From contig JBNGIO010006406.1 of assembly GCA_049999805.1 (NCBI GenBank), positions 1 to 64,000 on the forward strand: a stretch of 64,000 nt of DNA, written 5' to 3'. Made by a program: the position numbers and the translations under genes. The stretch comes from Folioceros fuciformis. Lineage: Eukaryota. Every line of letters starts with the position of its first letter. Within the stretch, counting starts at the first letter, position 1. Below, piece after piece: positions 10,401 to 54,153 of the stretch. The notes under the pieces were generated by a model. The model did not search any database. It was given only the letters and a program-made list of their open reading frames with translations, and was not told the origin of the DNA.

Positions 10401-11258
10401 GTCGGATTCCAAACCTCTCGAGATGATCTCCAAATGCAGCAGCTTCCCATAATCCAATGCTGATATGCTTGCACAGGCTTTAAGGGTCATAAGATAAGTA
10501 ACTCTATTGGGCTCCACGCCTGTCCCTCTCATGCACTGAAACAACCGTAGAGCCTCCAGAGCACCAGCATGCCGTATGTAGCCCCCAATAATAGCACTCC
10601 ACGAAACCACATCCTTATGCAACAAGTTGTCAAACACATTTCGTGCCTCCTCTATATCGCCACAATTGGCATACATTGTAACAAGGGCATTGCCCACAAC
10701 AACTGATGAATCGCATAGTGCCTCCATAGCATGTCTGTGAATCAACCTCCCCTCTAGAAGGTCGTCTGTGTTGCCACATGCTCTGATGAGAGATGCAAAT
10801 ACATGGGCATCCGGTATTACATTTGAATTGATCATGTCATGATACATCTCTATAGCCTTCTCACTTTGCCCGTCTTTGGTATATGCTGAGATGATTGTTT
10901 GCCAGGAGTACTTGTTTGGCAATCGCATGTTCCTGAAAATCTGATATGCTTCCAGCAGGCGTCCGCAAGAAGCAAACAACTGGATAAGTTTGTTATCAAT
11001 GTACACATTGGAGTCACAAATTCCTGACATAATTAGTGAATGAACTCTCGTGCCAACTGCCAAATTACTCTCCTGAATGCATCCCTGTAAGATAAATTCC
11101 ACCATTTGAGTAGTGACATTCCCTCGGCCTAGGGCCTCCACTGCCTGCAACGCCTCATCCAGGAGTCCCTTCTCACATAGTTCACGTAAATGTGGAGCAT
11201 GATCCGAGGAGGCATAGTTTACCACCCTGAAAACATTCAAGCATGTCAAACATTTCAA
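7500..11258 (-). CDS. PLS-class pentatricopeptide repeat protein with E/E+ domains (organellar RNA-editing factor); 5' end uncertain
   Basis: 1252-aa ORF of P-L-S triplets ending HYGCMVDLLARAG..KKAPGKTWI..VHSF..HP. The ORF track starts at TTG and an in-frame stop lies at 11277-11279, so an upstream exon (~11310-11650) is likely. Confidence 0.92.
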   Translation of the reverse strand: MKCLTCLNVFRVVNYASSDHAPHLRELCEKGLLDEALQAVEALGRGNVTTQMVEFILQGCIQESNLAVGTRVHSLIMSGICDSNVYIDNKLIQLFASCGRLLEAYQIFRNMRLPNKYSWQTIISAYTKDGQSEKAIEMYHDMINSNVIPDAHVFASLIRACGNTDDLLEGRLIHRHAMEALCDSSVVVGNALVTMYANCGDIEEARNVFDNLLHKDVVSWSAIIGGYIRHAGALEALRLFQCMRGTGVEPNRVTYLMTLKACASISALDYGKLLHLEIISRGLESDLVVANMLVDMYCKCGSLDEGQGVFDKLVKRDVVSWTALIGGCALVGRAQEALQNLKQMQEQGVQPNKITYLNIFKACSNAALLDFCTTAHFRFILSGLQLDVPLENALISMYITCGGLEQARGVFDRSAKRDLLSWNVMIAGYAHDCYPQEALGLFQQMKEARIMPDRVTFVHVLKACSNVGALNVGRQVHAEAIMRGFTQDVVIVNTLLDMYLKFECLDEAWNLFHSTKIKDAATWTAMIRICAQAGCGWKGLDLFHQMQQEGVVPNKFTFLSILGTCSSNAFIDEGAQIHTLAMRSGLGSDISVCNSLIDMYSKCGCLRKARDVFDSLWVKDVISWTSMIGGCVLHGHPLQAIELFQQMLEDGMEPDQVTFISALQACCSVAALDLGRQIHNQIVQDGFESDMAIMNLLVHMYAKCGALNAARNLFDTQQEKGLAVWNTLMSGYAQYGHCQQVLQLYQQLEDQGLEPDKITFLVTLNACSSIAALDQGKRIHEKVIKSKLDADSAVMNCLLDLYAKCGSLDEARKLFQTAEKNVVSYSTMIGGYTQHGYPREALTLFLQMTQQGMEPNRITFLGVIKTCGSLADVDYGKQVHLLLTERGIVVDGVLGNALLDMYARCGAVHDAEHVFKTMSKRDATTWAALAACYAHNGHSHEAIQLFQQMQQEGIEPDGNTLISILKVCASQGALDLGEHIHIQLSEKGLLQDTAISNALIDMYAKCGKLEEAVILFSNLEQSNVVSWTAIIAAHALHGQAREALRLFEEMLLANQKPCYITFVCILSACSHAGLLDDGFRLFLSMSKDHGITPEVQHYGCMVDLLARAGHLQGAVDLIDFMSVQPDSAMWLAVLGACQVYRNVEIGLRAFDCILRMKPETAAAYDLMSNIYASANMWDAVNAIQVKRRSAGVKKAPGKTWIPLGHQVHSFVVEDAVHPERGQIYNELYTLTQKIKVLGTDPSSLRAETVRMG

Positions 11259-12097
11259 CAGTTCAAACTGCTCTTTTCAAAGCTTCGACAAAAGAGGTTG
11301 GATCATGACCTACGATGGAAATGCCTTGCCCTTCCCCACTTGGTCACAGCACTCAGAATGTTAGCTTTTTTCAAGGCTCTCGCCACGCCTGTGTGTGTTG
11401 TCATGTGTCTCAAGGTTCCCGCCATTCTTCCAATCACGGCGGATTCCACAACCACATTGCGTGCAAGAGTGTAGTACTTTGATCAACTCTTGGAATAGCA
11501 GCAGCGAAAAATATCTGAAGAGAAACATCGACCGGACGACAACTGAGAGCTGCTAGAGGCCAGGACGCTTCTGTTGCAATGCTTCCATATACCAACGCCA
11601 ATTTTCCACCACCACCAGCTACGGGTGCTCTGACTGGCATGGCTGCCATGGACAACAGCAGGAGGAGAAAACATGCTGTTCACAATCAAACAAGTTGTAA
11701 TTAGGAGGCGCTTACAACAGCAGAGATGATGTATTGTTCAGGATCCGACTCTGCGGCCCTACATCTAGTGCCAGCTGCTGAATTTTGATGAAACGACGCC
11801 ACATGCGGCTCACGCAAACATGGGACGTGGCACGCTTGGATAGCGCCGGTTTGCGAAGGTGTTGCTTTCTTCGAATTTCTTGCTTTGCTTACTCTGCGCT
11901 GTCCGGACGTCAGAATCTGCTGCTGGTGCCAACGGGCGTGGCAGTGCTCACAGGCTGTTTGCCGCATGGGCCCGAGGTGTGTACAGCAGCTGGTGAATTG
12001 AGATCGTTAAGGACTTGCATCTGGAACCAGTAAATGTGTTGACTGGATGGCATGCGTCATTGTAGGAGGTTGTGTGTGATGTTACCGCCTGTCCAGC

Positions 12098-18944: not shown

Positions 18945-19488
18945 CGGTTGTTTCAACGTGCAACTACCTTCGCTCGTCCTACAATGCTCCTAAAAGGCTT
19001 TGTATTAAAATGCAAAAAATTAAGGAATTTGTGTCCTCAAAGGTGAAACCCGTAACACCAGTCTCACCGATGTCCTTGAATGATTGAAACGACATTCCAA
19101 CAACCAACCATGTCTCCGGGGTCACGAAAGTGGCGTTTCACTTAGAACACTCGAATTATCATTAAGTGAGAGATTTTTCACGGCTCCCGAAAAAACTGCG
19201 CAGAGTGGCGGGAGAGGCCCTTTTGCTTTCTTTACCTCACGGAAGGCTTGAGCTGATGTTGAAGGAGAGGAATTCGGAAGTGGAGCTCGAAATGGTGGCA
19301 GGCAGCTGGAGCCGTGCGGCAGGATGTTGTTGTCAGCGGGGATCAAGCTCGCCACGGCGCAGTGCTGCTGTTCTTTGCGAGAGGAAATGACGGGGTTGCG
19401 CAATGCTTGGCAGAGAACGCAATTGGGCACACGGGGAGCCTCGTGAACGCAGTCTAGGGTAGCTAGGTCTGGAGGAGGGAGCTCAGCC

Positions 19489-22400
19489 ATGTTTATAAAG
19501 CAGGTGATCATCGAAGGATTCAAGAGCTACAAAGAACAGGTTGCTGCGGAGCCATTCAGCCCCAAGCACAACTGCGTGGTCGGGGCGAATGGTTCAGGGA
19601 AGACTAATTTCTTCCACGCCATTCGGTTCGTGCTCAGTGATTTGTTCCATGATTTGCGGGCCGAGCATAGGCAGGCCCTCCTCCATGAAGGAGCCGGGCA
19701 TCAGGTCATGTCCGCGTTTGTGGAGATTGTGTTTGATAACAGTGATAACCGAATGCCCGTGGACAGGGAGGAGGTGCGCCTGCGCCGGACCATCGGCCTG
19801 AAGAAGGACGAGTATTTTTTGGATAAGAAGCACATCACTAAGACTGAGGTGATGAATCTGCTGGAAAGTGCGGGTTTCTCGCGCTCCAACCCTTACTATG
19901 TGGTGCAGCAGGGGAAGATTGCGTCGCTCACTCTGATGAAGGACGGGGAGCGACTGGATCTTCTTAAGGAAATCGGTGGTACTCGAGTGTATGAGGAGCG
20001 CAGGAAAGAGAGTTTGAAGATTTTGCAGGACACTGAGAATAGGAGGAGGCAGATTGTGGAGGTGGTTCAGTTTATCGAGGAGAGGCTCAAGGAGCTGGAT
20101 GAGGAGAAGGAGGAGCTCCGGAAGTACCAGGTGCTTGATAAACAAAGGAGGTCGTTGGAATACACCATCTTTGAGAAGGAGCTGCTGGATGTTAGGCAGA
20201 AGCTTGATGAAACGGAAGAAGCCCGGCATAAGGTTTCTGAGAAGTCCAGGAACATGTACAATAGCGTGTTGGAGTCACATGACCAGCTTAAAGACATGGA
20301 GAAGAGTTTGAAAAGCCTTGCCAAGGAGTTGCAGGCCGCGACCAAGGAAAAGGACTATGCAGAGAGGCAGAGGACGGAGTCGCTTCGGAATTATGCTAAA
20401 GTGGAGTCCGATGTGCGAGATATGGAGGACCGCATGAGGACGGAAGCAAGATCGAAGGATGAGATCGTGAGGGAGCTGAGAGCGCTGGAGAAAGAGATCC
20501 AGCGTTCCAGGCAGGCCTTGGAAGAAGTCACTCCTAGGTATCAGCAGCTGGTACAGCAGGAAGACGAGATTGCCAAAGGTGTGGTATCCAGAGAGAAGGA
20601 GCTCAGTATTCTCTATCAGAAGCAGGGGCGTACGGCACAGTTTGCCAACAAATCAGCTCGGGATCACTTTCTTCAGAGGGAGGTGGATGACCTGAAGGAT
20701 AGCATCCGCTCAGCGAATGCTCAAGTGCAGACGCTTCAGATTGAGATGACGAAGCTGAATGAAGAGCTGGAAGCTCATACAGCTAGCGTAGGCCATTTCA
20801 CCGCAATGCTTCAACAACTGGAGAGTTATGTTGCTCAAAGTGATGCGCAATTTGCTGCATTGAAAGCTGAAAGGGATAATATGCATGACGTACGAAAGAG
20901 TATGTGGAAACAGGAGAGTGATCTAACGGAAGAAGTTGAGAGACTGAGATCAGAGACTCAGAAGGCTGAGAAAGCCTTGGAGCATGCGGCTCCCGGTGAC
21001 ATTAGGAGGGGACTTATGTCTATCCGGAGAATCTGCAAGGAACGCAACATCACGGGTGTGCATGGGCCTATCTTGGAACTGCTGGACTGTGATGAGAAGT
21101 TTTTCACAGCTGCTGAGGTAACAGCCGGAAATAGCTTGTATCACGTTGTCGTGGATTTCGACGAGATATCAACCAAGATTATTCATTACCTTAGCAAGGA
21201 GAAGGGTGGCAGGGTCACGTTCATGCCTCTGAACAGAGTCACCCCGCCACGAGTCAACTATCCCACAGGCCCTGACGTAGTTCCTCTCTTGAGTTGGTTG
21301 AAGTATGATTCAGTTTATGCCCCGGCCTTCGCGCAGGTTTTTGGAAGGACTGTGATATGCCGTGATATCGAGGTGGCAACCAAAGTTGCTCGCACAGCTG
21401 AAGTAGACTGCATAACTCTCGAAGGTGACCAGGTTAGCAAGAAGGGAGGAATGACCGGTGGTTTCTACGACTACAAGAGGTCTAAATTGAAACTTCTTAG
21501 TGTCGTGCGGCAAAACACAAAAACGGTTGGCCTGAAGCAAGAAGAACTGGAGAAGGTTAGGGCATCTTTGCAGGAGCTTGATCAGAAAATCAATGGCGTC
21601 ATGAGTGAGCAGCAGAAGCTGGATGCTAGCAAGGGGCATAACAGGTCGCAATGTGACCAGCTGAGAAATGATATCAGTGCAGTGAAACGTGAAGAGGTTA
21701 TGAAGCGTCGAGCTCTCGAGAGCAAGAAGAAGTTGATGGCCAATTCGTGGGAATTGATTAAACAGCTTGAGGCATCAATTGAACTCAAGCAAAAGGAGAT
21801 GCAGACAGATCTTGTCGGGCAGTTGACGGATGAAGAAAGGCACCGCCTGTCGTGTCTGAATCCGGAGATAACCTCCTTGAAGGAAGACCAGATTACGATC
21901 AGAGCAATGCGAATGGATGCTGAGATGAGAAAGGGTGAGTTGGAGACTCTCCTGTCAACCAACTTGGTGAAACGTCAAACAGAGCTGGAGGTCCAGCTTG
22001 CTGCAGTGGATCCAAAGACACTCGAGGCAGAACTTGAACAAAAGAGAGAAGAGTTGAGGAATGCTAAGGTCTCTGTCGACGAGGATACACAACACTTGAA
22101 GACAATCACGGATCAGATTGATAAGCACAATCGACAGATACAGCACTTGAAAAGCTCGAAGGATGAGCTGAAGGCTTTGGAAAGCACCTATGAGCAGACT
22201 TTGCAGGATGAAGCAAAAGAGCTGGAGCAACTTCTTAGCAAGCGAAACCTGCTTCAAGCAAAGCGAGAGGACCTGATGAAGAAAATTCGTGACTTAGGTT
22301 CCCTCCCCTCCGATGCCTTTGAGAAGTATCAGCGGAAAGGACTTAAGGAGCTGCACAAAATGATCCATAGATGCAATGAACTGCTTAAGGCTTTCAGCCA

Positions 22401-23100
22401 TGTGAACAAGAAGGCTCTTGACCAGTACGTCAATTTCACCGAGCAAAGAGAGGAGCTTCATTTGAGGCAAGCTGAACTGGATTCTGGCGATGAGAAGATC
22501 AGGGAACTCATATCAGTCCTGGATCAACGAAAAGACGAGTCTATTGAAAGGACATTCAAAGGTGTTGCAAAAAATTTTCGAGAAGCTTTTGCGGAGTTAG
22601 TTCCAGGTGGTCACGGATCACTTGTGATGATGAAGAAGCGGAGAATGGATGAGGCAGAGGATGAGGATGCAGATGATGACTATCGCGAAGGAGATGTGGA
22701 CAGGGTTGAGAAATACATAGGAGTGAAAGTGAAGGTTTCATTTACGGGGCAGGGTGAGACACAGTCTATGAAACAGCTGTCCGGAGGTCAGAAGACGGTT
22801 GTTGCTCTAACTTTGATCTTCGCTATCCAGCGATGTGACCCTGCTCCGTTCTACCTGTTTGATGAGATCGATGCAGCTCTGGATCCTCAATACCGCACAG
22901 CGGTGGGGAATATGATAAAGCGACAGGCAGATACCTCACACACTCAGTTCATCACTACAACATTTCGACCTGAGCTTGTGAAGGTTGCTGACAAGATTTA
23001 TGGAGTCACTCACAAAAATAGGGTGAGCCGCGTTGATGTCATCAGCAGGGACGATGCTCTCTACTTCATAGAGAAAGATCAAAGTCATCAACCATCATGA
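19489..23100 (+). CDS. SMC3: Structural maintenance of chromosomes 3 (cohesin subunit), intronless
   Basis: 1203-aa uninterrupted ORF: Walker A GANGSGKT, GLKKDEY, LESAGFSRSNPYYVVQQGKI, hinge GRVTFMPLNR..GGMTGGF, LSGGQK, FDEIDAALD. Confidence 0.97.
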   Translation: MFIKQVIIEGFKSYKEQVAAEPFSPKHNCVVGANGSGKTNFFHAIRFVLSDLFHDLRAEHRQALLHEGAGHQVMSAFVEIVFDNSDNRMPVDREEVRLRRTIGLKKDEYFLDKKHITKTEVMNLLESAGFSRSNPYYVVQQGKIASLTLMKDGERLDLLKEIGGTRVYEERRKESLKILQDTENRRRQIVEVVQFIEERLKELDEEKEELRKYQVLDKQRRSLEYTIFEKELLDVRQKLDETEEARHKVSEKSRNMYNSVLESHDQLKDMEKSLKSLAKELQAATKEKDYAERQRTESLRNYAKVESDVRDMEDRMRTEARSKDEIVRELRALEKEIQRSRQALEEVTPRYQQLVQQEDEIAKGVVSREKELSILYQKQGRTAQFANKSARDHFLQREVDDLKDSIRSANAQVQTLQIEMTKLNEELEAHTASVGHFTAMLQQLESYVAQSDAQFAALKAERDNMHDVRKSMWKQESDLTEEVERLRSETQKAEKALEHAAPGDIRRGLMSIRRICKERNITGVHGPILELLDCDEKFFTAAEVTAGNSLYHVVVDFDEISTKIIHYLSKEKGGRVTFMPLNRVTPPRVNYPTGPDVVPLLSWLKYDSVYAPAFAQVFGRTVICRDIEVATKVARTAEVDCITLEGDQVSKKGGMTGGFYDYKRSKLKLLSVVRQNTKTVGLKQEELEKVRASLQELDQKINGVMSEQQKLDASKGHNRSQCDQLRNDISAVKREEVMKRRALESKKKLMANSWELIKQLEASIELKQKEMQTDLVGQLTDEERHRLSCLNPEITSLKEDQITIRAMRMDAEMRKGELETLLSTNLVKRQTELEVQLAAVDPKTLEAELEQKREELRNAKVSVDEDTQHLKTITDQIDKHNRQIQHLKSSKDELKALESTYEQTLQDEAKELEQLLSKRNLLQAKREDLMKKIRDLGSLPSDAFEKYQRKGLKELHKMIHRCNELLKAFSHVNKKALDQYVNFTEQREELHLRQAELDSGDEKIRELISVLDQRKDESIERTFKGVAKNFREAFAELVPGGHGSLVMMKKRRMDEAEDEDADDDYREGDVDRVEKYIGVKVKVSFTGQGETQSMKQLSGGQKTVVALTLIFAIQRCDPAPFYLFDEIDAALDPQYRTAVGNMIKRQADTSHTQFITTTFRPELVKVADKIYGVTHKNRVSRVDVISRDDALYFIEKDQSHQPS

Positions 23101-25268: not shown

Positions 25269-26149
25269 CTATCGGGCATTGCCATAGCTCTGATAATAAT
25301 AATATCGGCTGCCTCGACCCTGGCCCTGAGACGAAGAAGCCTGCGCAGCCATGAGCTTCTTGACCTTAGACTTCTCCCGTTCCTCTCGCTTTAACCTCTC
25401 TGATCTAAGTTCCTCAACCGTCTTCCGCTTACCCGCTTCTGCCGACACCAGGATACAAAACACATCAGACGCATAATCCAGCAATCAAAGAACCGGATCT
25501 TCAACGGAGCAAATACAGCAGCACAGGATGACGATTAAAAAAAACCTCAAAACACCGAAACGCACTCAACACAACACTTACGAGATCGAGAAGGGGCAGG
25601 GCAGGCCTCATCTTCGTCCTCCGACTCACCCTCGTCTGCCCTATTCAGCACGAAACTCTTGGTAAGATACCACGGCCTTTTGGAATTCTTGCCGACGGTC
25701 CCATACCCGAACCTGTACTGCTCATCGCTTGCATCCACAGGTTCCTGCCTCCCTTTCCCTTCTGTCCGCCTGCTCTCATCGGTCTTCCTTTTGCGGTCCA
25801 CGGGCTTAGCCTCGGCACCAGTCTGCCTCTCCTCCACGTCCTTGAACAGATTAATATGCTCGATCTTCACCACCTGGATGGAACCATGCCCTGATTCCCC
25901 GTCCGGACCGCCCTCCCCTGCATCACCACTGCTATCTGCGCCGTGGCCAGCGGACACGCGCTTGGCGTGTGCAATCTCCCGCAGCTTCTCCAAACGGAAC
26001 TCAGAGTCCCTCTGTCGCGCAAGGCGCTGCGCTTGCTGCTCCTGCCGGGCTGCCTCCTCCTCATCCTTACGCACCCGCTCCCGATTGTCGAAATTGTACA
26101 CATTCCACCGCTTCTGCGGCAGAATGTTCAACCCGCCGTGCCCTCCCAT
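25269..26149 (-). CDS. Cir_N domain protein (LENG1-like), 2 exons
   Basis: MGGHGGLNILPQKRWNVYNFDNRERVRKDEEEA N-terminus; C-terminal KTVEELRSERLKREERE..YYQSYGNAR*. Confidence 0.85.
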
Positions 26150-27699
26150 TCTCACGGGATCGCAAATCTGCCTAGAGTCGGGGGTGTTTCTCCTTTCCGT
26201 GCCTCGTCACAGTTTTCTTTGAGAAATTCCGTCGGTGTCTGAATCTCAAGGAATTCCCCCGTCACATCTGGCCGCCTCAAGATGGCTCAGTCTACATAAG
26301 CTAACTACGTATGTAGATACTTACTTACGTATGTATGTACAATGTTCACAAAGATTATGGGAGGCCCAGCCTAGTCCCCCTTTTAACCATTGGCCTTCTT
26401 TGGCTTGTCCTTGGACTTCGAAGTAGGTACATATGTAGATGGAGTTTTCAAGTATTTTCTGAATAAAATATAAGAATTATTTATATACTCTCTTTCAGAT
26501 GAGTTCTCAGATATAGTAGGGAGTATGGAATAAGGATTCGGACACCCTTAGACATTGATTTTTTTTTCTGGAATACATATTTATACGGGAATATACGGTA
26601 GCATCTACCACAGATTCTTGTACTAAACATAACCATGTCACAGGACCTACCTATACACCGTAATGGGCATGTGGACTGATATGGACACGTATTATGTTTT
26701 TTATTTAGGTTCATGTGGGCATGTGTATGGAATATCGAATAAGATGCGGAGAGGGACTACATAGTCATGTATAACAGCTTAAGAATTGCAGCTAAAAGAA
26801 GCCACAGCAGCAATTATAGTTGCTCTTACACGGTTCACAAAAACATCAAGTTCATTAAGCTAGACCACAGAGGCAAGAAGGCAACCTACAGCAACCTACA
26901 ACACCTTTCACAAAACATCTACAAACTACTAGTGCTGCTACTACAAGACCAGTCTACTAACAGTAGATTCAGGAAAAACTCTACAGGTTCACCATCTCTG
27001 TAGTACCAAGGCCAGTGCCTTTAACTTGCCTACCTGCACGCCACATGCATTCCTAAATCTTGCAATCCCTACCACGAGAGGCAACCTCCACATATGTTGC
27101 ACAGTCACGTATGGCACACTACCGTTTTTGCGATGCGCGCACTGGATCCCGTGATTTCGCAATTGGGTGACAAGAATCGTTCCAGCAGCTGCACGCAAGG
27201 AAGCAAACTCCGGCTCACCCTTTCGATTGGCCTCCCTATCGCGTTGGTCTTGAGGGCCATCTGAAGGGGACGAGCTCCCCACCCACTCTCCTGCATAGGT
27301 CGATGGCCCTCTAGGAATGGCACTGTTGAACCTCCAGATGGAGCCCACAATCGCAGCTTGGCTAACTACGTGAGTTGTCCTGCCGCGACGCACTTCTAAC
27401 AATTCACTACGCATTGTGGGGTCGGTAGCTGGGATCAATGTCGACGGCGATCGCTGCCTAGAGACATTGCTACCTGGTTACATGGTGGCCATGGGCCTCG
27501 AGGTGCGGCCCTCTCTCTCCCTTATCATGTTCGCCTTGCACAGGTGCAACTTGCATCTCAACTGCTACACCTGCAACGTGGATGCAACTTGCCTAGAGCC
27601 TTTCGATTGAGTGGCGGGAGGGCACTAGGATGAGGGGGGAGGTTGAAACACCGTGTAGGATCGACACTCCACTAATGTCGCTTAGCTGATGCATATGAG

Positions 27700-28075
27700 G
27701 ATTGAAGACACACCTAAGACTCAATATGCAGCTACGACTACAGACACACCTAGGATTGATGATGCACCTTCGACTGCAGACACACCTAGGACTAAAGATG
27801 NNNNNNNNNNNNNNNNNNNNNNNNNNNNNNNNNNNNNNNNNNNNNNNNNNNNNNNNNNNNNNNNNNNNNNNNNNNNNNNNNNNNNNNNNNNNNNNNNNNN
27901 GACACACCTAGGACTAAAGATGCACCTACGACTGCAGACACACCTAGGACTAAAGATGCACCTACGACTGCAGACACACCTAGGACTAAAGATGCACCTA
28001 CGACTGCAGACACACCTAGGACTAAAGATGCACCTACGACTGCAGACACACCTAGGACTAAAGATGCACCTATGA
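27700..28075. repeat. 36-bp tandem repeat GACACACCTAGGACTAAAGATGCACCTACGACTGCA (2x18-bp higher-order unit), spans an N gap
   Basis: Four perfect copies plus a partial one at 27901-28071; degenerate copies at 27700-27800. Confidence 0.95.
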
Positions 28076-28327
28076 TTGAAGACGCACCAGGTTACTTGGT
28101 TGATGCCTGCAAGGATTGAAGACGCAGAAGCGACTCCACATATGTTCCTGACTTGGGCTGGTTACGAGGATCGATGAGGAGTAGCCTGTATGGGCAAATT
28201 GGTGGTTGACAAGTATGCCACTGCAAGGGAGATGCCTGGTAACTTAACTTCACTAGGATGCCACATGTGTTCAATATGACACTCGAGTGAGTGTGCTGGG
28301 GAACGCGCAAGTTGCGTCTATTTCAAC

Positions 28328-28680
28328 AGCCATAGAAGACAAAACGTAATACTTCATCCTGCACTCAAAATACTTCATTAGGTGGCATGCATTGGATACA
28401 TCCTCTAGAAAACCCATGCATTGGATACATCCTCTAGAAAACCTTCCAATCCATAAGCCAGCAATAGCCATAGAAGACAAAACGTAGTACTTCATCCTGC
28501 ACTCAAAATACTTCATTAGATGGCATGCATTGGATACATCCTCTAGAAACCCTTCTCATCCATGAGCCAGCAATAGCCATAGAAGACAAAACGTAATACT
28601 TCATCCTGCACTCAAAATACTTCATTAGGTGGCAAGCATTGGATACATCCTCTAGAAACCCTTCCAATCCATGAGCCAGC
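28328..28680. repeat. Three tandem ~109-138-bp repeats (AGCCATAGAAGACAAAACGTAATACTTCATCCTGCACTCAAAATACTTCATTAG...)
   Basis: Copies start at ~28328, ~28466 and ~28575. The first copy carries an extra internal duplication of ATGCATTGGATACATCCTCTAGAAAACC. Confidence 0.93.
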
Positions 28681-29378
28681 AAACAAAAAGCACTATTGAC
28701 GGTCAACCCAAAACACTCTGATGGAAGCATGACTTTGGATAAACATTGTGGATCGTTTCCATTGTAGTTGCCACAAGCCACCGAGCATTGTTGACAACAA
28801 TGCAATATACTTCAGTGGGATGCCTACCATCCACACTAGTATGTGGAAGAAGAACAAGGCTTGCACCATAAGTCACAAGTAAATGATACTTCAGGGGGAT
28901 GACCTATGCACTAAGACACTAAGAAGCACTAAGACAAAAAACAATCCTAGGCCAGAGGCCAACATAACGCATACGACCAAGGACCAAGTGCAAAGGGAGC
29001 AAGTCGTAGCCTCCCAGTTGTGAACATGTAAACTAAGGTACTTGCTAGAGGCTACCACCAAAGACAAGTGGTCAGCAATGTCAAAAAGAGCAACAGCACA
29101 ATTGCATGGCCGATGGATGGGTGTTGTTCCATTCAAAAAAACATGAACAATAACATGATGCATGGATACGTTGCCCACATATATAGACAAACATAACATG
29201 AACTCTGAGTGAAGGGTGGGCCGCATATGTAGGCCAACGTAACATGAACTCTCGATGAAGTGTTGCCTCATACCCGATGTTAGGCTTGTGAGGTCTATTT
29301 ATATCCTACTCGTTGTTGGCCTTTGAAGACGTAATACACATGATCACGAACTACGTAGTCGTCCTTTTCTAGTTTTCC

Positions 29379-29404
29379 CATATATATATATATATATATA
29401 TATA
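29379..29404. repeat. (TA)n microsatellite
   Basis: Direct reading of the sequence. Confidence 0.9.
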
Positions 29405-31999
29405 GGAAGTGTATGTGACGTACATATGCATATGGTGAAAACTATGATGTTACACAATACGCATGATAGCCTTAGGAAGGTAGAAGTGAAATGGAGTAAA
29501 GTGTGGTTCATTGTTTTATGCTTTGTCGTAGGGTTAGGGTATGGTCCCTACACCCTAATACCCATGAACTATGTATATGACAACAAGCCAAGCCTAACAC
29601 CTGCCAGCTTGGGGTGGAGGACACCAAAACAGCAGCAATGTGCACCGCAATGAGGTTGAGTACTGTAAGGGGATGAAGGGGCCCACCACACGGAGAGTTA
29701 AGGGTTTGAATTGGCATCGAGCGAGCCAAGTCATGCTGCTTTTAATGCATGGATGGTGTATGGTTGCCATAAATGGCTGCGATACCACTCCCTTCTTAAA
29801 CGACGCAGGGGAAGCAGAACTCCGTACAATGGTTGGGGATTTTGCCCCACATGGTACAGTGCAGCCTACGCTAACACCTCAAAGACGCAGATAGTTTTGA
29901 AAAGGGGCCAATGTTGTCGGTGGGTTGCCTCCACTAGGTAGTAGCGTGGAGCGAGACACTGTGTGCGCACGGAGCCCCGCCTTGGGCACGCTCATGACAA
30001 TGTCACAGCTGAGTCAGCAATGCTCACTAGCACACCCGTTTGCACTGTGCTTATGGCACATGCAGCAGGTTCAAAACCTTTGTTGAAGCTTGGCTCCAAT
30101 GCAAGTGGAGACCGTAGACGACCGCCCTCACATGGGGTGCAAGAAATGGGAGAGGAGGCAATCTGATCCATGGTTGCCTTGAGTAGAGGGTTGTGTTTCG
30201 TGTAAGCTTGTTGTGGTCTACATTGTGAGGCGAGCGTGATGCTGGATGAAAGGGACGCTTGTCTGTTGTGGGAACTAAGCTTACAATAGGGCTGATGGCT
30301 TCTAATTGTGCTAAGGGCGACCTCCTCCACGGCTCGCCTTCCTTCACGGTCAGGGCATCGCGATGCGGCAGAAGACTGGGAAATGATATGCTAGCGGGAG
30401 TACATTGTAGGGTGGCCAAAGGGTCTAACCAACTATTGGGAATTATCTGAGCTCCTTGCCTTCCTGGAAGACCATGAGCGCCACTCCTACAAATGGATGG
30501 CTTTTCTGCAAAAAGTGCTCATACTCTATGAGCTGCATAGTAGGGGGATAGATGGTGTGGAGTGGAGGTGGACAAACTACTGCGATAAAGCATACTGGCT
30601 GGTGGAATGTCTTGTCTTCATGCATCAAGTTTTTGACACGTGGGCTCCAAGTAACTACACGGTGTATGTAGGGAGGGTGCGGCCAAAATCAATCCATGAC
30701 GTGAGAGTGTGGTTCACGCAGTTGCATGCATCTAGAGCGATAGCTAAGGTTGGAAGGTGGCCCTAAAGGTATTATGCATTGCTCAATTGTGTTCATCTTG
30801 GGGAACTACAGTGGAACAAACGAGCAGTAGCATTGTTCGATGAGCTAAACATGGAGACCGAAAAGCATGTCTTAAACTTCATATCCGGCCTTTGTGAGGA
30901 GGCAGCGACCTCCCATGATATTGGGGTGTACAGGATAGGGGCCGGCATGCGGGAATGTAGTGTGTACAATTGGCTCTTGCAGCAATGTTGTGGTGTGTCT
31001 TGCATTCCAGACCCTGCGAGGGAGCTGTACATAAAGTGTTGTTGGAACCCTAAACTAGTGAACGATCTGTGGTATGTCGTGTCTGTGAGGCTGTCATGGC
31101 ATGTGGCACTGCGTGCACGTCACTGTGTCCATCGTGTAAAACGCTTTTTTTGTCATAGACATTCGAATGAGGCTTGTGCTTGACCTGCACCCTATTGCAA
31201 TGGCAAGTATGGATGTATTTGCTTGCTGGTGAGTCTCATGATGTCCTTATTGACCTGACGAGCCACCCCGCACCTACGTGGCTATGTCACGTGTACTTGT
31301 TGTTCCTCATCAGGTATGTGCAGTAATTGGCACGGTAGCTTGGTAGAGGTGTGTTGACGAAGACCTGAGGATGTTGTTGGGCATATGGAATTTGCAACAA
31401 GTGGGTGCATATTCCAATACATTTTGCAGTGTATGAGGGGGGCCATGGGGCAGTGGAAAGTGTAGTGGGATCGATGGTGGATTGCATAGCAGCCTGCATG
31501 TACGATGCAGCCCACAAAAATGCGTTGCAATTGCATAAGAAGCTTGTGGCATGCACATTGCACGAACCCAATTCCCAGACACCGGTAGCACATCGTCAGA
31601 AGTGCGGCATGCATTCAGGGTGTCACTTGGATGCAATCCGCATTGTTCATCGGTGTAGGTAGGGCAATTAACGCGATCGCCACGTGTTATGTGGAAGACA
31701 AGACCAGGAGCGCAGATGCACCTGTCTGCAACATGTGCCTATGGAACACACTGTTCAAACTATGGGTGCGAATGCTGCTGAAGTGAGTTGGGGTGATAGG
31801 TCGAGAGCCCGTTCGTGCACAGACGGAATGAGGTAGAGGGTGTTGACCCTGGCTGCGACGGCGCTGAGCAACAATTGAGGGCCATGTGTGCAAAGAGGAA
31901 GGGACGGGTGCCCCTAGTGTGGTCTGCACTTTGGTCATAGGTGTGCACAGTCGCGGTGGTTAGCTTCTATAGGGAAGACATGGCATTCTGTGTATTGCG

Positions 32000-33172
32000 A
32001 TGGACGTGGCCTTGGGGGCGCATGGGTTACTGCCCGACAAGGAGGAAGGCTGGCTAGGGGCCATGCATGCCCTAGTCGACACAATGGGGGAACCAATTGC
32101 CGAGAACCATGTTGCACACTTCCAGCTACACATGGTGGATGGGCCTGCAAATGGTGCACGGGCAGGGGGTGGAGGGGACATCGTTGCNNNNNNNNNNNNN
32201 NNNNNNNNNNNNNNNNNNNNNNNNNNNNNNNNNNNNNNNNNNNNNNNNNNNNNNNNNNNNNNNNNNNNNNNNNNNNNNNNNNNNNNNGGCAAGGACGACC
32301 TTGGAGCGGACTGGGTTGAGTCAACAAGGCTTGTACGAGATGGTAGTGCAGCATTTGCAAGGAGGACGGCCGCTGAAGGAGCTGGCGCCGCAGCTGGGTT
32401 GCAATATACGTACGGACAGGAGGCTACTAAATGGACATCCCATGTGGAGGGGGGTGCATGGCAGGTTGTCCATGGAGGAGGTGTGGACGATTATCACAAC
32501 GCACACTCCAATACGGCAGCACGGTGTGAATGCGGGGATTTGATTTGTGCAGGTTGAGCTGTAGCTGGATGGAATTGAGATACCAAAGAGGCAGGTAGCA
32601 GAGGCGTTGCGCTGGGTTGGTTTGCCGCGTAGTAGCTTCCTGTTTTCATAGCCCTGTTGTGAAATTAGTATTTACCCTCCTCTGCAAGAAAAAAACATTA
32701 ACACAGTTGTAATCACAAACGGATTGAGCACTTCTGGCGAGCATTGGGGGAGAAATGGGCATTCTTGTACAAGGGGTACTTGGTAAACTTGATAAGGAGC
32801 AACGAATTGGACATAACGAATCCGTGGCACATTCATTCCTTGCATGCTACGTTCATGCCCACCATAAGGAGTGAGCTGGAACGATGGAGGCAAGTGTGGA
32901 ATCGACATCAAGTACGGCGTATGAGGGGCCCGAATCGGGACATCCCAGGACATGTCCCTGCAATCGCTTTCCAAGAGGAAGAGCAGTTGAAGGGGTTGGT
33001 GCAGCCACCTCCGTATGGTGCAGTGGATGATGATGGAGAGAAGTACAATGCCGGGGGCCCACAATACACACAGAATGTGGCTTCGGAGATGCCCCCGTTG
33101 AGGAGGATTGAGCTTCTGGATGGGGTGAGCTTCTGTAGTGATGCAGGCGTGGCTGCAAGCTTTTGCTGTTGA
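32000..33172 (+). pseudogene. IS3EU/integrase-core-type transposase remnant (HTH plus C-terminal part of DDE core)
   Basis: HTH LKELAPQLGCNIRTDRRLL; NAGI*FVQVEL*LDGIEIPKRQVAEALRW; SCNHKRIEHFWRA..ELDITNPWHIHSLHATFMPTIRSELERWRQVWNRHQVR. The segment with the first two catalytic Asp residues appears to be missing. Confidence 0.7.
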
Positions 33173-36100
33173 CCCGTAATTGACTTGTGCATGACTGTGC
33201 AATGGATGCCTGTTACTGCATTGTCCTTGGAGGTTGAGCTACAATGTGGAGGAGATGGCAGATGTACATTTCCTTGTGCATGCAGTGCAGTTGAATAGGG
33301 AAATTCGCGTGACTGTGGCAAGAGATTGGAGACCTAAACCCTGTAGCTACTACATGTGGCTAGGAAATGTGGTTGCAGCTTGCATTTCGTGATGGTTATT
33401 GGTAATTGTAGGGAGTGCGTGCAAACGCAACTTGCAGTTCCACATTCCACGTGGACATGGCCAGGCAACAAGTAGTTGGAGAGAGTGCTTCGTAAACAGA
33501 GTTGCGCTAGCAATTTGTGGTGCAGCATTGAGGGCACAATTTGAGTGTAGTGATTGTAACTGCAGACATATAGTGGATTTTGTGGCTACACCGTATGGGT
33601 AGGGCTGTCGTTGTTGTTCATGCATGTAGGGTGTGTTGCAGGTTGTTGCTTCGGCTGGCCCTGACCAAGCAAAATATTGTAGTGGCGTTTGGGCATGTTG
33701 TCTGCAATTTCCTTTTAATGTTGCACCTTGCAAGCAAACTTACCCTCCACATTGTATTTGTGCGTTGTGCGTTGTGCTAATTGCAGTTGGTAGTAATTAT
33801 AACCCACACCCCTTTCTGTGCTTTATGGAGGCATTGCAAGTCGCCCGCAACAATGCTTATGTGAAACGCCTGGAGGGTAAGGACTATTTACTTAATATGT
33901 ACCGCTTGCACTTGGCCTTGACCACATTGTGTAGAGAGTGCAAAAGCAAAATGGAGCCCTTGGATGCCTACCTACATGCTTGGACGTAGGAGGAGGGCAC
34001 TCCGTGGGAGTGGACATGCATTTGCCTCCTTAGCTCTCTGTAGTAATGGGGGGAGGGGGGGATTTGTCAAGTACCTTAGGGGCATGTGTGTTGTGGAGTG
34101 AGACCCTATGTAGCTTTGCCTTGCCCTCATGGGCTGTGAAATAAAGGTGGGCATTTCATTCCCCTCTATCATTTGTTTGTCCCCTTGTCCTCCTCACATC
34201 CATGTGAATGCATAGCGAGGAAGGCAAGAAGGGATATCCCCTTTAGCAGGTTTTGGATTGGAGTGGCAATAATTCAGATGGTTAGGGGTGTGCATGGAGG
34301 TGAGAGAGATGTGTGCACATCAGACAACACGGTGAATGCTGAGGTCCGCTGTAAACCTAAACCCGAGGATGGATGTTGACCCCACAAGCACTAACCCTAA
34401 CAAAAAAACGAAAGTGAATGACTGTGAGTGGAGAGAGATGAATCCGAACGTGTGAGGGATAAAGTATTATCACAAAGTAGGTGTCACAATGGCACCCTAC
34501 AACCTAAGGAGACAGATTTGTTATGTCCAAAATGTTTGGACCGTATATGGCCGCGCTAAATTTTGTGTGAAAGTCAGCCTGAATGTATCGGTATTCCATA
34601 AGGGAGATGAGGGAAGTTTATTTAATTATTTATATTATTATATAAATACAATCTAGGAAATTTTATAAATTGATTATAAAATTATATATTTACTAAACAA
34701 ATATAGAATAATTCGAATTAAATGGTTTTTTATCAAGAGTAAAACTAAGGATAAAATTATTTGCTATGGGCATGGCATGGCGAGAAAAAAAAAAAGTGCG
34801 TCGGCCGTCTTTTAGAATTGTACTATAGTTGTGTTGTGTATGGAGAATGTGACAAAGCAAAAATTTAAAAATTGGAGCACCTACAGCTAAATGAAAGGGA
34901 GCGTGAAGGAGGTGGCGGTTAGCTTTGAGCTGGCACGCACTTGGAAAAGGCTGCCATGGCGCAAGCAGTCAGTCAGCGTTGGCAGCCTCGGGCCCCGTCC
35001 AGTCTCTCTTTTCCGTTCCCTGCTTTCTTTTCTTTCTTTACTTGCTTCATACTTTCCCGTTCCTTTCCACGGCTTCCGTTCTCCGGAAGCTCTCGCATGG
35101 CCCGACGGCAAGATGGCGCTCAGCACGCACGCTCGCTTTCAATACGCCTTGTGATGGCCGTGCGGCCCAGACAAGGAAGCGCAGGACATGGGAGGTTTGT
35201 CTGCGAGCCTCCGTTGCAATGGTGCCGGATTTGAGGCAATTTCGGCTCACTCGCTACAATTGTAGCTCCTCCGCACCTTCTTTTGCAATGTGGAGGTATC
35301 ACTTGCTTGTTTGGACTAGTCGGGAGTCTGGCTGCACCTAGTTCTTGGTCCATGTGGAATGCGGTGTTGCCTTGTGAGTTAATTGGAGTTTCTGACTGGT
35401 CGATGGTACCGTCTGCCCGGTGAGTGACCTGGTGTCTTATCCGTCGTCCCCTTCAGTGTGCCATTTGTGTTGCAGTGAGTTAGTGAGTAGGCCCGTTCTT
35501 GTGTGGTGGTAATTTGACCCCTTTTGCAACTCGACGGGCTTCCTAGTGCCTGCTGTCCAGGCATGGCTTTTGTCTTGCAGCTGAGATAAACTGTCAGCTG
35601 CGCTGTCGACGCTCATCGTGGCTCTCTTATGTTTGAGCAGAGAGGAATGGGAGTGGCAGAGATCAGCTGGAGAGGAGTCGGGTGGGCTTCTGGGACGGGG
35701 GTTTCCTTGTCGTCCTGAAGCTCTTATTATGGAATTGCCATGTTGAGTAATCTGAGCGCGGAGGACAGTCCCGGCCTGTGTCGACCCCTTGTTGCTGCTT
35801 ACTGCGTGGCACAGCTTTAGATATGGGTAGAGTGCATCGGCTGTTCAGGACCAATGTGCTGGATGAGGGCACCCCCTCGTGGTTTCTCAGATTGCAGAAC
35901 GGGGTGGTCAGATGTTGACTCGTTGGGCACCTAAGCGAGGGTCCACTTGTGGTTCTGTGCTTGACAGAGGGTTCTGGACCGTTGCGTGTGATGTGACGTC
36001 ATGGAATACAGTGCCCCTCGATGCATCCTCTTGCCTTGTTTTCTTCAGCTGGAGTTTGCTATCATGTTTGTCATACTGATGGAGGGAAAGACATTCCCTT

Positions 36101-36246
36101 GCTTGTCTTCATAGAAGTGTCGGGAGAGAGCCCTCTGTACACAAGTTGTCCTCTTTTTCTCGCCTCCTCTCTCTCATCAGCCTTTGCTCTCTCGATCAGC
36201 CAGAGGCTGATGAGAGAGGGAGTTAAATGCAATGCAAGGCTGAGTT

Positions 36247-39251
<3,005 letters not shown>

Positions 39252-39694
39252 TGCACGGGCACGCTCCTCGGTTCACAGTACTCTCTCTTGACCATTCTTT
39301 CCATCCATATTCAAGTAAATGTACAATAAGTCTCACAATTTGTCTTCAAACAAGGCTCAGAATGTGAAAATCTTCGAACAAATTCTTGGAGTGATCTTAC
39401 CCCGCCATTAAGACACTGCACAAGGGCTTCTTCCATTCCTGGAAACACGCAGATATTTCCTCTCCCGTGTGTCCTACACAGACTCCATATCCGTAAAGAC
39501 AACGTTCTCCAAGGAATGGGGCGCATTTTGCAATCGGTAGTGACAGCTATGCAATCTCTTCCTTCTAAAATCTGCCAGTATAATTATCAAACGCGCTGAC
39601 TAAAGATATTTTTCTCAAAACAAGCCCTTACTTATCTCGAGAAAAGGTACAAAGAGAAGGAAGACATAACACGCGGATACGGGAGAAGCGGAAG

Positions 39695-51700: not shown

Positions 51701-53019
51701 GAATCAGGTGTACTGTTGCCTTCTTCTCCCATAGCTGTGTAGACACAAAGTGCTTCCCATCCCAGGCCTTGATGAGAATATCCTGCTATCATGGCGTTCC
51801 ACGTCGCCACATCTTTTCGACCAAGCCCATCAAACACTCTCTTAGCATCTGCCAAGCTGCCACATTTTGCATACATATTCACCAAACTGTTACCGACCAA
51901 TACATCAGTTTGACGCCCCTGTTCTCTAATCTGCACATGAAACTGCTTCCCCAGCTCCAAAGCTGGGCTGCCCTCACTTGCACATGCCTGCAGGAGGCAA
52001 GCAAATGTGACGGAATTGGCTTCTGTGCAGCCTTCTGCTCGCATAGCCCTGTAGAGACGCAGGGCTTCCTGAGCCATGCCCTGCTGGGAATACCCTGAGA
52101 TCATGGCATTCCAAGTCACCACATCTTTTCGACCAAGTCCGTCAAACACCCTTCGAGCATCTTCTAAGCTGCCACACTTTGCATACATGCCCACCAAGCA
52201 ACTGCAAACGAACAAATCAAGCTCAACACCAACAGCCAACACATCAGCATGCAGCTGCTGCCCGGTAATCAAGTCTCCTTTCCTTGCACAAGCCTGAAGG
52301 GCAGCCACAAACACATGCCCATCTGGCCTCACACCTGACCTGCGCATGCCATGGTACAGTTGTATAGCTTTCTCGTCTTCTCCTTGTTTAACATGCGCAG
52401 AGATCAAGGACGACCACATGAAGGCATCCGGTGTGGCAACCATGGTGAACACATCCATCGCGTCTTGCAACCTGCCATGAGAAGCATACATTCGCAGGAT
52501 GTGGTTGCAGATGAACGTGTCCGTCCCAAATCCCGTCTTCACCGTAAAGGCATGAATGCGGCGACCGAGAGCAACATCCTTCTTTAGTACACACTCTTTC
52601 AGGACCGCATAAAAGAGAGATCTGGAAACGCAAAATGCAGTCTCCACCAAAACTCCCAAGGCCTCAACAGCTTCAGCCAGCTGGCCCTGCTCACATAGCA
52701 TGCTCACAGTTTCGGACGTTACAATCCTTCCGTATCCTGCAGGACTGTTATTCCGCCACAATGTGTGGCCTCCAAACAGGAGCTCGCTGGAACACCCATG
52801 TCCTGACAACCGTCCTTTCGGACAGGCTGGTTCTGTTGGAACGCTGTGGCACCTCGCACCTGCAGTGTTTCCCAACGGTGGGCTCCATGAAGGGGAACCA
52901 GCATGGGCTTGTACAACAGTGCCTGTGAACCCACCACTTTGTTGGGTCCACGGCAATCCCTTCCATAACGAGTCCGGTTGCCCCTTCCAAAGCTCAATTC
53001 CACCACTCCACACAGCCAT
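48727..53019 (-). CDS. Long PLS-class PPR protein with E domains and WW-type PG box, truncated before DYW (intronless)
   Basis: 1430-aa ORF with ~11 P-L-S triplets at a 312-bp period; HYTCMVDLLGRAG E domain; ends KEPGQSWWTDADGQLHSF. Confidence 0.95.
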   Translation of the reverse strand: MAVWSGGIELWKGQPDSLWKGLPWTQQSGGFTGTVVQAHAGSPSWSPPLGNTAGARCHSVPTEPACPKGRLSGHGCSSELLFGGHTLWRNNSPAGYGRIVTSETVSMLCEQGQLAEAVEALGVLVETAFCVSRSLFYAVLKECVLKKDVALGRRIHAFTVKTGFGTDTFICNHILRMYASHGRLQDAMDVFTMVATPDAFMWSSLISAHVKQGEDEKAIQLYHGMRRSGVRPDGHVFVAALQACARKGDLITGQQLHADVLAVGVELDLFVCSCLVGMYAKCGSLEDARRVFDGLGRKDVVTWNAMISGYSQQGMAQEALRLYRAMRAEGCTEANSVTFACLLQACASEGSPALELGKQFHVQIREQGRQTDVLVGNSLVNMYAKCGSLADAKRVFDGLGRKDVATWNAMIAGYSHQGLGWEALCVYTAMGEEGNSTPDSLTFVCLLQACARLGTPALEKGRQIHVQIREQGYQADNVVVNSLVNMYAKCGSLEDARSVFDGFRQKDVVMWNAIIAGYSQQGMGQEAIRLFWAMQEEAVAVPDSVTFVCVLRACACVGNPALEIGKRLHVQIKEQGLQADESVANSLVTMYAKCGSLEDAQSVFDVIDRKSVVTWNAMIAGYSQQGMGQEALCVYTKMAEESNTLPNSVTFVCLLQACACIGTSALEKGRQLHAQIKERGNEADSFVANSLVNMYAKCGSLADAQKLFDKLGYKDVVTWNAMMRAYSQQGKGWKALRLYGNMQTDSTVVPDSVTFVCLLQACAGIGMSALEFGKQLETQIREQGHLADQFVVNSLVNMYAKCGSLEDARRVFDGLCQKDVVTWNSIIAGYSQQGLGQEALCLYTAMQEEGMTVPNPVTFVSLMQACASVGAPALAKGKQLHVQIEEQGHEADVFVASCLVNMYVKCGSLADARRVFDGRAEKDVVIWTAMIAGYSQQGMGQEALCLYSAMQKACLAVPDSVTFACLLQACASVGSSALKIGKQLHSQIRERGHEVDVFVASSLVNMYAKCGSLERAQRVFDGLGQKDVVTWTAMIAGCSQQGMGQEAIRLYSAMQNEGVAVSDSVTFVSLLQACAGVGAPALEIGRQLHVQIKERGYLADVFVANSLVNMYAKCGSLEDARSVFNRLVQKDVVTWNTMITGYSQQGRGPEALRLYSEMQDEKTAEADSVMFVTLLQSCANVADLHLGRRLHMQIKEQGLQDDLIIAGSLINMYGKSGSMVEAQQVFDALSVRDTVAWSALVAGYTCQGDSEAVFALVQRMEEDGLQPDSITFLSVLTVCNHASLVTKGRDYFEAMSNYGITPTADHYTCMVDLLGRAGRLDEALALVRTMPVLPNAAVWHTLLSACRKWSNVEVGCDAFNQAVQLEKNDAAAYVLMSSIYTGAQMWERAEKMQARRKGVRAWKEPGQSWWTDADGQLHSFLAKRGLDTLS

Positions 53020-54153
53020 ACACTCCAGTCACAGGGAATGCATCGCCTGGAATACGATGGGTTTCATGAGCGATCCTGATCCGTCGCACTGCTCCATCAG
53101 ATGCTGCATCTAAGAATTCGAGGTCTAATAGAACCTTGATCCAAAATCGCTGTCCACCAGGAAGGAAAAATTAGAGTGCGGTGACGTTTGAGCTGGGACG
53201 GAAACATGTCTTTCCTTGTTTCTTATTTTTGCTTCTGTTTTCTCTTCCCAAAGCGTGTTGCATCCTCTTGAGACTTTTCATTTGTTCTAGAAACTTATTA
53301 CTCAAACATGCAAATATGCCTTAATTACTTGCTTTGCTCACTATTTCCAGTTTACAGTTCTTAGGTTGCAAACCATGGGTTGCAATTTAGATTTACGATT
53401 TGTGTGCCTCGAACCATTAGCTAATTTGGATTCACTATGGCATATTAAAGGGGTTAATCTCTCTTTTCCCCTATTTTAATCATTTTTCCATAAGTAACTT
53501 CTAGCATGTCCTTCCTCGATTCCCAAATAAACGATGTATGCTTTGGTCACCCAAACACAAAGGGCATTACACCAAATAAGGCAAACAAAGTGATTAAAAC
53601 CATGGCAACTTAGGGTTTGAGTGGAAGCGAATTAGCCCAAAATTTTTACACCACATGCCTTCTTTGTAATACTGCAAACTCGAATGCATGTTGTACTAAA
53701 AACTCTTTCCTAGCCCATAACTACAAGCATCCTCATATGTTGTGGGCTTGCCACTTCCATAACCCAACCATCTATGAGCATCTTGTTAAGGGTAGGGTTT
53801 ATGTGTGACAACCCATCCAATCATATGTAAGTGTCTTTCTAACGACTATGGGTTGCGATCCAATCTTTTCCCTTAATCGGGCTTTATGACCAATGGCTCC
53901 ACAATCAGCCTATTCATACTTTATGTTTGAGAGTGTGCTTGCCTCCGAAACCACAAACTTGTGGAATTTATCTCTCATATTGGACACATCTCTTACTTCA
54001 AGCCATTCTGGAACAAACAAGGACAAAAATCGAACCAAGCGTACATTGGAATGAAAAGTCATCTCCAGACAATCACGCAATTGAATTATAGCAATCTTAT
54101 AACACAAAGCGAGCACTCCAAATCTCATAGTACAAACAGCTATAGCCTTGATA

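Follow-up and report, generated by a model that had tools for sequence, protein, structure and literature searches.

Is the insert at positions 26524-34600 of contig JBNGIO010006406.1 a complete DNA transposon of a recognisable superfamily, and could this copy still supply its own transposase? The locus lies in a stretch of 64,000 nucleotides (positions 1 to 64,000 of the contig, forward strand), the whole of which was analysed and is referred to below as the window. The original prediction, made from the letters alone, had described a bounded IS3EU-like DNA transposon in a land-plant genome, flanked by a 6-bp target-site duplication (TSD), carrying inverted termini, a subterminal 9-mer at both ends and the remnant of a transposase gene, and had seen in it an under-recognised plant lineage. 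We conclude that the insert is very probably a single, TSD-flanked insertion of the IS3EU/GingerRoot superfamily that is now unable to make its own transposase.

As assembled, the insert comprises 8,077 bp, including 200 N. The AGGGAG hexamers on its two sides (Table 1) match exactly and have no seventh base in common. The duplicated hexamer has a G or C at four of its six positions, while the left flank is A+T-rich (35% GC over 150 bp); at the right boundary the G+C content falls from 41% within the element to 15% in the outer 150 bp. The left and right terminal inverted repeats (TIRs) agree at 13 of 16 inverted positions, the first nine being identical, and give the element the termini TATGG..CCATA. 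The subterminal 9-mer has exactly two copies in the 64 kb (0.08 expected), on opposite strands and once per end. The duplication, the inverted termini and the subterminal pair of the original prediction are all there on direct reading. The heptamer TGGAATA is found 15 times in the window against 7.4 expected, with three copies grouped at the left end of the element, and the terminal motif as such recurs at 26726-26743 (TATGGAATATCGAATAAG). These TGGAATA repeats are candidate subterminal binding sites of the transposase. The 14-mer TATGGAATANNGAT, with at most one mismatch allowed, matches five times in the window (0.27 expected); both exact matches are the element ends, and a third match sits inside the left end. 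The matches at 53479 and 55542 show no extended similarity and were taken as chance.

The protein evidence is provided by an open reading frame (ORF) of 156 codons on the plus strand (32702-33169), which is open throughout and begins directly after a stop codon. The KRIEHFWR...WNRHQVR pattern noted earlier is real and lies in this ORF, which shows N-x-R-I-E, then NPWH..SLH..F.P...WN.H.VR and HVPAIAFQ; the codon of the catalytic Glu is presumed to be 32726-32728, within N-x-R-I-E. Among the 80 stop-to-stop ORFs of the element (at least 45 codons, both strands) it is the only one that passes a Pfam cut-off: it matches PF24764 (rva_4, integrase core domain) with an E value of 1.5e-11 and 44.8 bits (cut-off 26), over positions 99-170 of the 194-position profile. 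A HMMER scan of 1.84 billion representatives with the ORF gave 177 matches at E<=1e-3, the best at 2e-14 with 36% identity, and among the matches listed the nearest proteins are at most 40% identical to it. Full-length relatives (340-600 aa) are PF24764 proteins in 20 of 20 cases. A hidden Markov model (HMM) built from these 20 relatives matches the ORF with an E value of 1.5e-26 at positions 211-300 of 394, and hhalign of the 20-relative profile against the ORF gives 99.3%. The consensus of the relatives has, in this order, an N-terminal helix-turn-helix (HTH), W-H-x-D, I-D-G-x-S-R, R-x-D-x-G-x-E-N and H-N-Q-R-I-E-R-x-W-R. The Atlas neighbours of the ORF are PF24764 clusters in 30 of 30 cases, with Basidiomycota the commonest source, and the nearest relatives that extend upstream (P0005 and P0007) carry a VRSDFA.EH motif that is also found in Selaginella sequences. 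Comparison with Pfam profiles, which had been named as one way to check the family of the transposase, agrees with the assignment.

The gene is a remnant, as had been claimed, both catalytic aspartates being missing. Homology sets in abruptly at 32705, right behind the stop codon. With the 150 relatives listed, tblastn returned 148 match rows, all at about 32.4-33.1 kb. In a relaxed tblastn for the region that carries the two aspartates (the D-D region), the rows outside the ORF, among the matches listed, all had E values of at least 0.01. Among 2,434 six-frame ORFs from the entire window, the family profile matches 32702-33169 alone, and the next-best scores (E 0.08 and 6.9) belong to the window's own copia integrases. 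The catalytic triad (Asp-Asp-Glu, DDE) is incomplete, with the Glu-bearing third of the core retained and both Asp without counterpart in the window; therefore, this copy cannot encode an active enzyme. An 84-codon frame upstream of the core remnant may be what is left of the N-terminal HTH of the transposase: in hhalign against the 20 relatives its residues 19-70 fall on columns 10-60, a weak and colinear match (P=0.007, HH probability 5%) that lends the identification some slight support. The frame has no Pfam match at E<=1 and no match among PDB sequences at E<=10, and its AlphaFold model is helical with low confidence (mean predicted local distance difference test, pLDDT, 56.9). The HTH that had been reported from the sequence has a colinear position in its favour and receives no confirmation from Pfam, PDB or AlphaFold.

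The superfamily of the element follows from its ends and its protein together. According to Kojima and Bao (2023, PMC10045372), IS3EU elements have TA..TA termini and a TSD that is usually 6 bp long, and IS3EU and GingerRoot form one lineage (bootstrap 99%). The IS3EU families reported from rust fungi have TAYGG..CCRTA ends, a 6-bp TSD and TIRs of more than 30 bp (Kojima 2025, PMC12730594). The description of GingerRoot, based on the clubmoss Selaginella lepidophylla, dates from 2019 (Cerbin, Wai, VanBuren, Jiang; PMC6839031). The present element is a member of IS3EU/GingerRoot, with (i) a 6-bp TSD, (ii) TA..TA ends and (iii) a PF24764-type transposase, the equivalence of PF24764 with the IS3EU/GingerRoot transposase resting on a by-eye comparison of motifs with the GingerRoot supplement. 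In that comparison the ORF and SL_GR-020, which belongs to the supplement's DDE alignment, have the same residue at 22 of 55 ungapped positions and share the motifs N-x-R-I-E-H-x-W-R and NPWH..SLH..F.P (both by eye). The bounded transposon of the IS3EU kind is upheld by this combination of a 6-bp TSD, TATGG..CCATA ends and a PF24764-type remnant; the "under-recognised plant lineage" is not supported, GingerRoot having been published in 2019 (PMC6839031) and joined with IS3EU in 2023 (PMC10045372). The plant range of GingerRoot is given as restricted to bryophytes and lycophytes (PMC6839031). Hornworts, liverworts, Marchantia and Anthoceros go unmentioned in the main text of the GingerRoot paper (PMC6839031), and among the papers searched none pairs "IS3EU" with "bryophyte".

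Table 1 Features of the element, with positions in the window
Feature	Position	Strand	Remarks
Left TSD copy, AGGGAG	26518..26523		Direct reading; identical to 34601-34606
Left terminal inverted repeat, TATGGAATAAGGATTC	26524..26539	+	Direct reading; TATGG start
TGGAATA direct copies (n=3)	26526, 26569, 26728 (26526..26734)	+	All within the first 211 bp
Subterminal 9-mer, ATATACGGT	26591..26599	+	68-76 nt from the left terminus
36-bp tandem array, 18-bp sub-period	27706..28088		Broken by a 100-N gap, 27801-27900
109-bp tandem repeat, ~2.5 copies	28386..28682		
Unexplained reading frame, 262 codons	30395..31180	+	Single stop (30764-30766)
100-N assembly gap	32188..32287		Directly upstream of the transposase remnant; length here uncertain
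Putative N-terminal DNA-binding (HTH-like) transposase remnant	32289..32540	+	84 codons, stop-terminated
Junction, 164 nt	32541..32704	+	Should encode ~137 profile columns, both catalytic Asp among them; no homology detectable
C-terminal part of integrase-like DDE core	32705..32998	+	Inside ORF 32702-33169
Subterminal 9-mer, ATATACGGT, inverted	34540..34548	-	53-61 nt from the right terminus
Right terminal inverted repeat, reverse complement TATGGAATACCGATAC	34585..34600	-	Direct reading; CCATA end
Right TSD copy, AGGGAG	34601..34606		Direct reading

A number of observations weigh against this interpretation. Some of them would fit a genuine transposase fragment whose supposed ends had been paired by chance, in an element that is really larger, smaller or truncated. 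When the window was scanned for 9-bp inverted repeats with 6-bp flanks, both exact, at a spacing of 1-15 kb, and 200 first-order Markov surrogates were scanned alongside, such bare pairs were not rare (4 in the window against a mean of 1.19 per surrogate, n=200). Past the 16th nt the two ends show no significant resemblance (over 120 nt, z = 1.3; over 300 nt, the local score is 42, where shuffles reach 29.2 +/- 5.7 and at most 47), and TIRs of 100-150 bp, as in the Selaginella GingerRoots, are therefore absent; the short TIRs may be either a family trait or the result of decay of longer ones. Near-copies of the terminal motif also lie inside the element, at 26726 and 26569, and profile, end and tblastx comparisons found no second copy of the element within the 64-kb window. 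A stricter scan, demanding a TA start and a match at four or more of the next seven positions, was however passed by two window pairs and by none in any of the 200 surrogates, the two being the element ends and a (TA)n microsatellite artefact. The latter pair, at 29385 and 42633, illustrates that structural scans pick up simple repeats. The ends of the element moreover combine the family-specific TAYGG..CCRTA form with a 6-bp TSD, the inverted 9-mer is unique to them and stands at similar offsets from both termini, the hexamer preceding the internal motif at 26726 (CATGTG) has no match to the right flank, and the base composition breaks at the right boundary. We consider it unlikely that the ends were paired by chance.

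Other objections concern the nature of the fragment and the state of the gene. No relatives of the 156-aa ORF came up in word-index searches of longer and near-length proteins. Ginger1, Ginger2/TDD, Polinton/Maverick elements and long terminal repeat (LTR) retrotransposons, with 5-6-bp duplications, could each have left an integrase fragment: Polinton and Ginger2 are reported to yield 6-bp duplications likewise (PMC6839031), copia-type elements are present elsewhere in the window, a weak match to Pfam rve is seen as well in 11 of the 20 full-length relatives, and the family profile is similar to the cores of retroviral integrases, its D-D region matching the catalytic core of retroviral integrase in the PDB with an E value of 1e-4. 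Such a source is nevertheless exceedingly improbable: the ORF matches PF24764 alone, with no rve at E<=1, the copia integrases of the window reach only the E values given above on the family profile, none of the 80 element ORFs matches a reverse transcriptase, gag, protease, polymerase B or capsid, and the element has TA..TA termini and no LTRs or long direct terminal repeats. As to the gene, two 100-N gaps within the element (27801-27900 and 32188-32287), the second of which adjoins the gene, leave the length and part of the content of the element uncertain, and the 156-codon frame remains open. The loss of the D-D region could accordingly be an assembly artefact, or the ORF a domesticated host gene, in which case the copy would not be dead. 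The 164-nt interval between the two pieces of the gene, however, is fully sequenced, contains no gap and has stops in the transposase frame; the ORF follows a stop directly and has no coding continuity upstream, and open frames of comparable length exist on the opposite strand. That the copy is alive in either sense is very unlikely.

For the IS3EU/GingerRoot insertion favoured here, a history can be proposed by analogy with the family. The transposase, with its RNase-H-like, integrase-related DDE core, would have bound the TA-terminated inverted ends, their recognition probably being aided by the terminal and subterminal repeats that contain TGGAATA. It would have excised the element and inserted it at a target site opened by staggered cuts 6 bp apart, and repair of this stagger would have produced the AGGGAG duplication. 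The stretch for both catalytic Asp has been deleted; of the gene, a weakly recognisable N-terminal piece for DNA binding and the final third of the core, with the Glu, are what is left. Since the remnant gene lacks the D-D region and no other recognisable gene is present in the 8 kb, the copy is presumably a fossil or, at best, a non-autonomous element that could move solely with a transposase from another copy.

The rest of the interior contains tandem repeats and frames with no recognisable product. The 36-bp array contains an assembly gap, and its length and therefore the length of the element are uncertain. The reading frame at 30395-31180 has one stop, against about 12 expected by chance. 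It has no Pfam match, and its part downstream of the stop (30767-31180) is without an Atlas match; the frame could derive from a second ORF, now decayed, or from a captured fragment. Searches for captured fragments or a second gene by Pfam (80 ORFs), by Atlas (30767-31180) and by tblastx against the rest of the window found none, and no part of the element showed similarity to the remainder of the window. No HHCC zinc finger, GPY/F or chromodomain was matched by Pfam in the 80 ORFs, an absence that means little in a gene so heavily decayed.

The land-plant origin of the DNA, as originally predicted, is supported by PLS/E-type PPR genes and a plant SMC3 in the same window, whose gene set of land-plant type also includes an F-box/Kelch ORF, an E1 ubiquitin-activating gene and a pectinesterase that carries a PMEI domain. 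Two of the PLS-class PPR ORFs, with E motifs, are very long and intronless (7503-11276 and 48730-53028, both on the minus strand; 1,258 and 1,433 aa), which suggests an RNA-editing-rich non-seed plant genome. SMC3 (19447-23097, plus strand) is one uninterrupted ORF of 1,217 codons and may be a retrogene or reflect an intron-poor genome. Its product is 74-75% identical to those of Diphasiastrum, Riccia and Marchantia, the highest values among named plant SMC3 proteins, about 71% to those of Selaginella, ferns and mosses, and about 66-68% to those of angiosperms. In a FastTree tree of SMC3, which is unrooted and includes no hornwort sequence, the window protein forms a long branch between liverworts and mosses plus vascular plants (support 0.91); a hornwort host is a plausible conjecture. 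It is possible, although we hold it to be rather doubtful, that the host is a lineage without an earlier report of the superfamily, the SMC3 placement fitting a hornwort, and that the element stands for a new GingerRoot/IS3EU family with TIRs of about 16 bp and TGGAATA subterminal repeats. As far as sequence comparison can tell, the low identity of the nearest proteins (at most 40%, among the matches listed) gives no sign of recent transfer. In a pattern scan of 185,579 bacterial and archaeal species, with one genome per species, the window ORF had no relative, a result that likewise offers no pointer to recent transfer.

The element has an ORF of 219 aa without a Pfam match to its left (25550-26206, minus strand, about 0.3 kb away) and a Myb_DNA-bind_4 ORF to its right (36244-36963, plus strand, about 1.6 kb away), and therefore lies in a short A+T-rich intergenic space near genes. 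Further along the window, the stretch 39923-42128 is A+T-rich (27% G+C at 40-42 kb) and holds three assembly gaps, one of them of 400 N; it is adjoined by a tRNA-Arg(CCT) gene (39694-39767, minus strand). Pol and gag fragments of copia-type LTR retrotransposons (RVT_2, rve, gag_pre-integrs, Retrotran_gag_2) are located in opposite orientations at 54945-59022 (minus strand) and 60024-61565 (plus strand).

The value of the locus is mainly one of annotation, in that it adds one well-bounded, defective copy of a superfamily known in non-seed land plants (clubmosses, mosses) since 2019. Should the host belong to neither the mosses nor the lycophytes, the superfamily would be known from a wider range of plants, with a bearing on the question of inheritance versus acquisition. 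If it is indeed the new host lineage suggested tentatively above, the superfamily would occur in all three bryophyte groups, which would favour vertical descent from a land-plant ancestor over transfer.

With the prokaryotic IS3/IS481 elements the insert has in common the class of transposase, a DDE enzyme of RNase-H-like fold in which an N-terminal HTH precedes the catalytic core (as outlined in PMC10045372); it differs from them in that they have TG..CA ends, are much smaller and reside in prokaryotic hosts. The Selaginella GingerRoots, as characterised in PMC6839031, are closer. Their TSDs are of 6 bp and G+C-rich (mean 61%), 72 of 77 intact elements have TA..TA ends, and the host is a non-seed land plant, all as for the present element. 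The 8.1 kb of our element lie within their length range of 3.9-12.9 kb. An integrase-related DDE transposase is encoded by 54 of the 77 and resembles the motifs retained here, and the defective state of our copy has a parallel in the 23 of 77 intact elements from which the DDE region is missing. In contrast to their TIRs of 100-150 bp, those of the present element consist of about 16 nt (13/16) plus one shared 9-mer; the transposase fragment is about 40% identical to the closest published sequence (over 55 residues, compared by eye), captured gene fragments were not recognised, the SMC3 tree does not group the host of the window with Selaginella, and the element is close to genes, whereas the Selaginella elements reportedly favour gene-poor regions (PMC6839031). 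Compared with the IS3EU elements of Repbase (from animals, fungi and others), the insert is set apart by its plant host, by TIRs shorter than the more than 30 bp reported for rust fungi (PMC12730594), and by being defective and without TET/JBP or alpha-kinase passenger genes. It resembles them in the PF24764 transposase and, as laid out in PMC10045372 and PMC12730594, in the 6-bp duplication and the TAYGG..CCRTA form of the ends. The same TAYGG..CCRTA ends in fungal IS3EU elements and in a plant copy support a recognition of the ends that is conserved across kingdoms.

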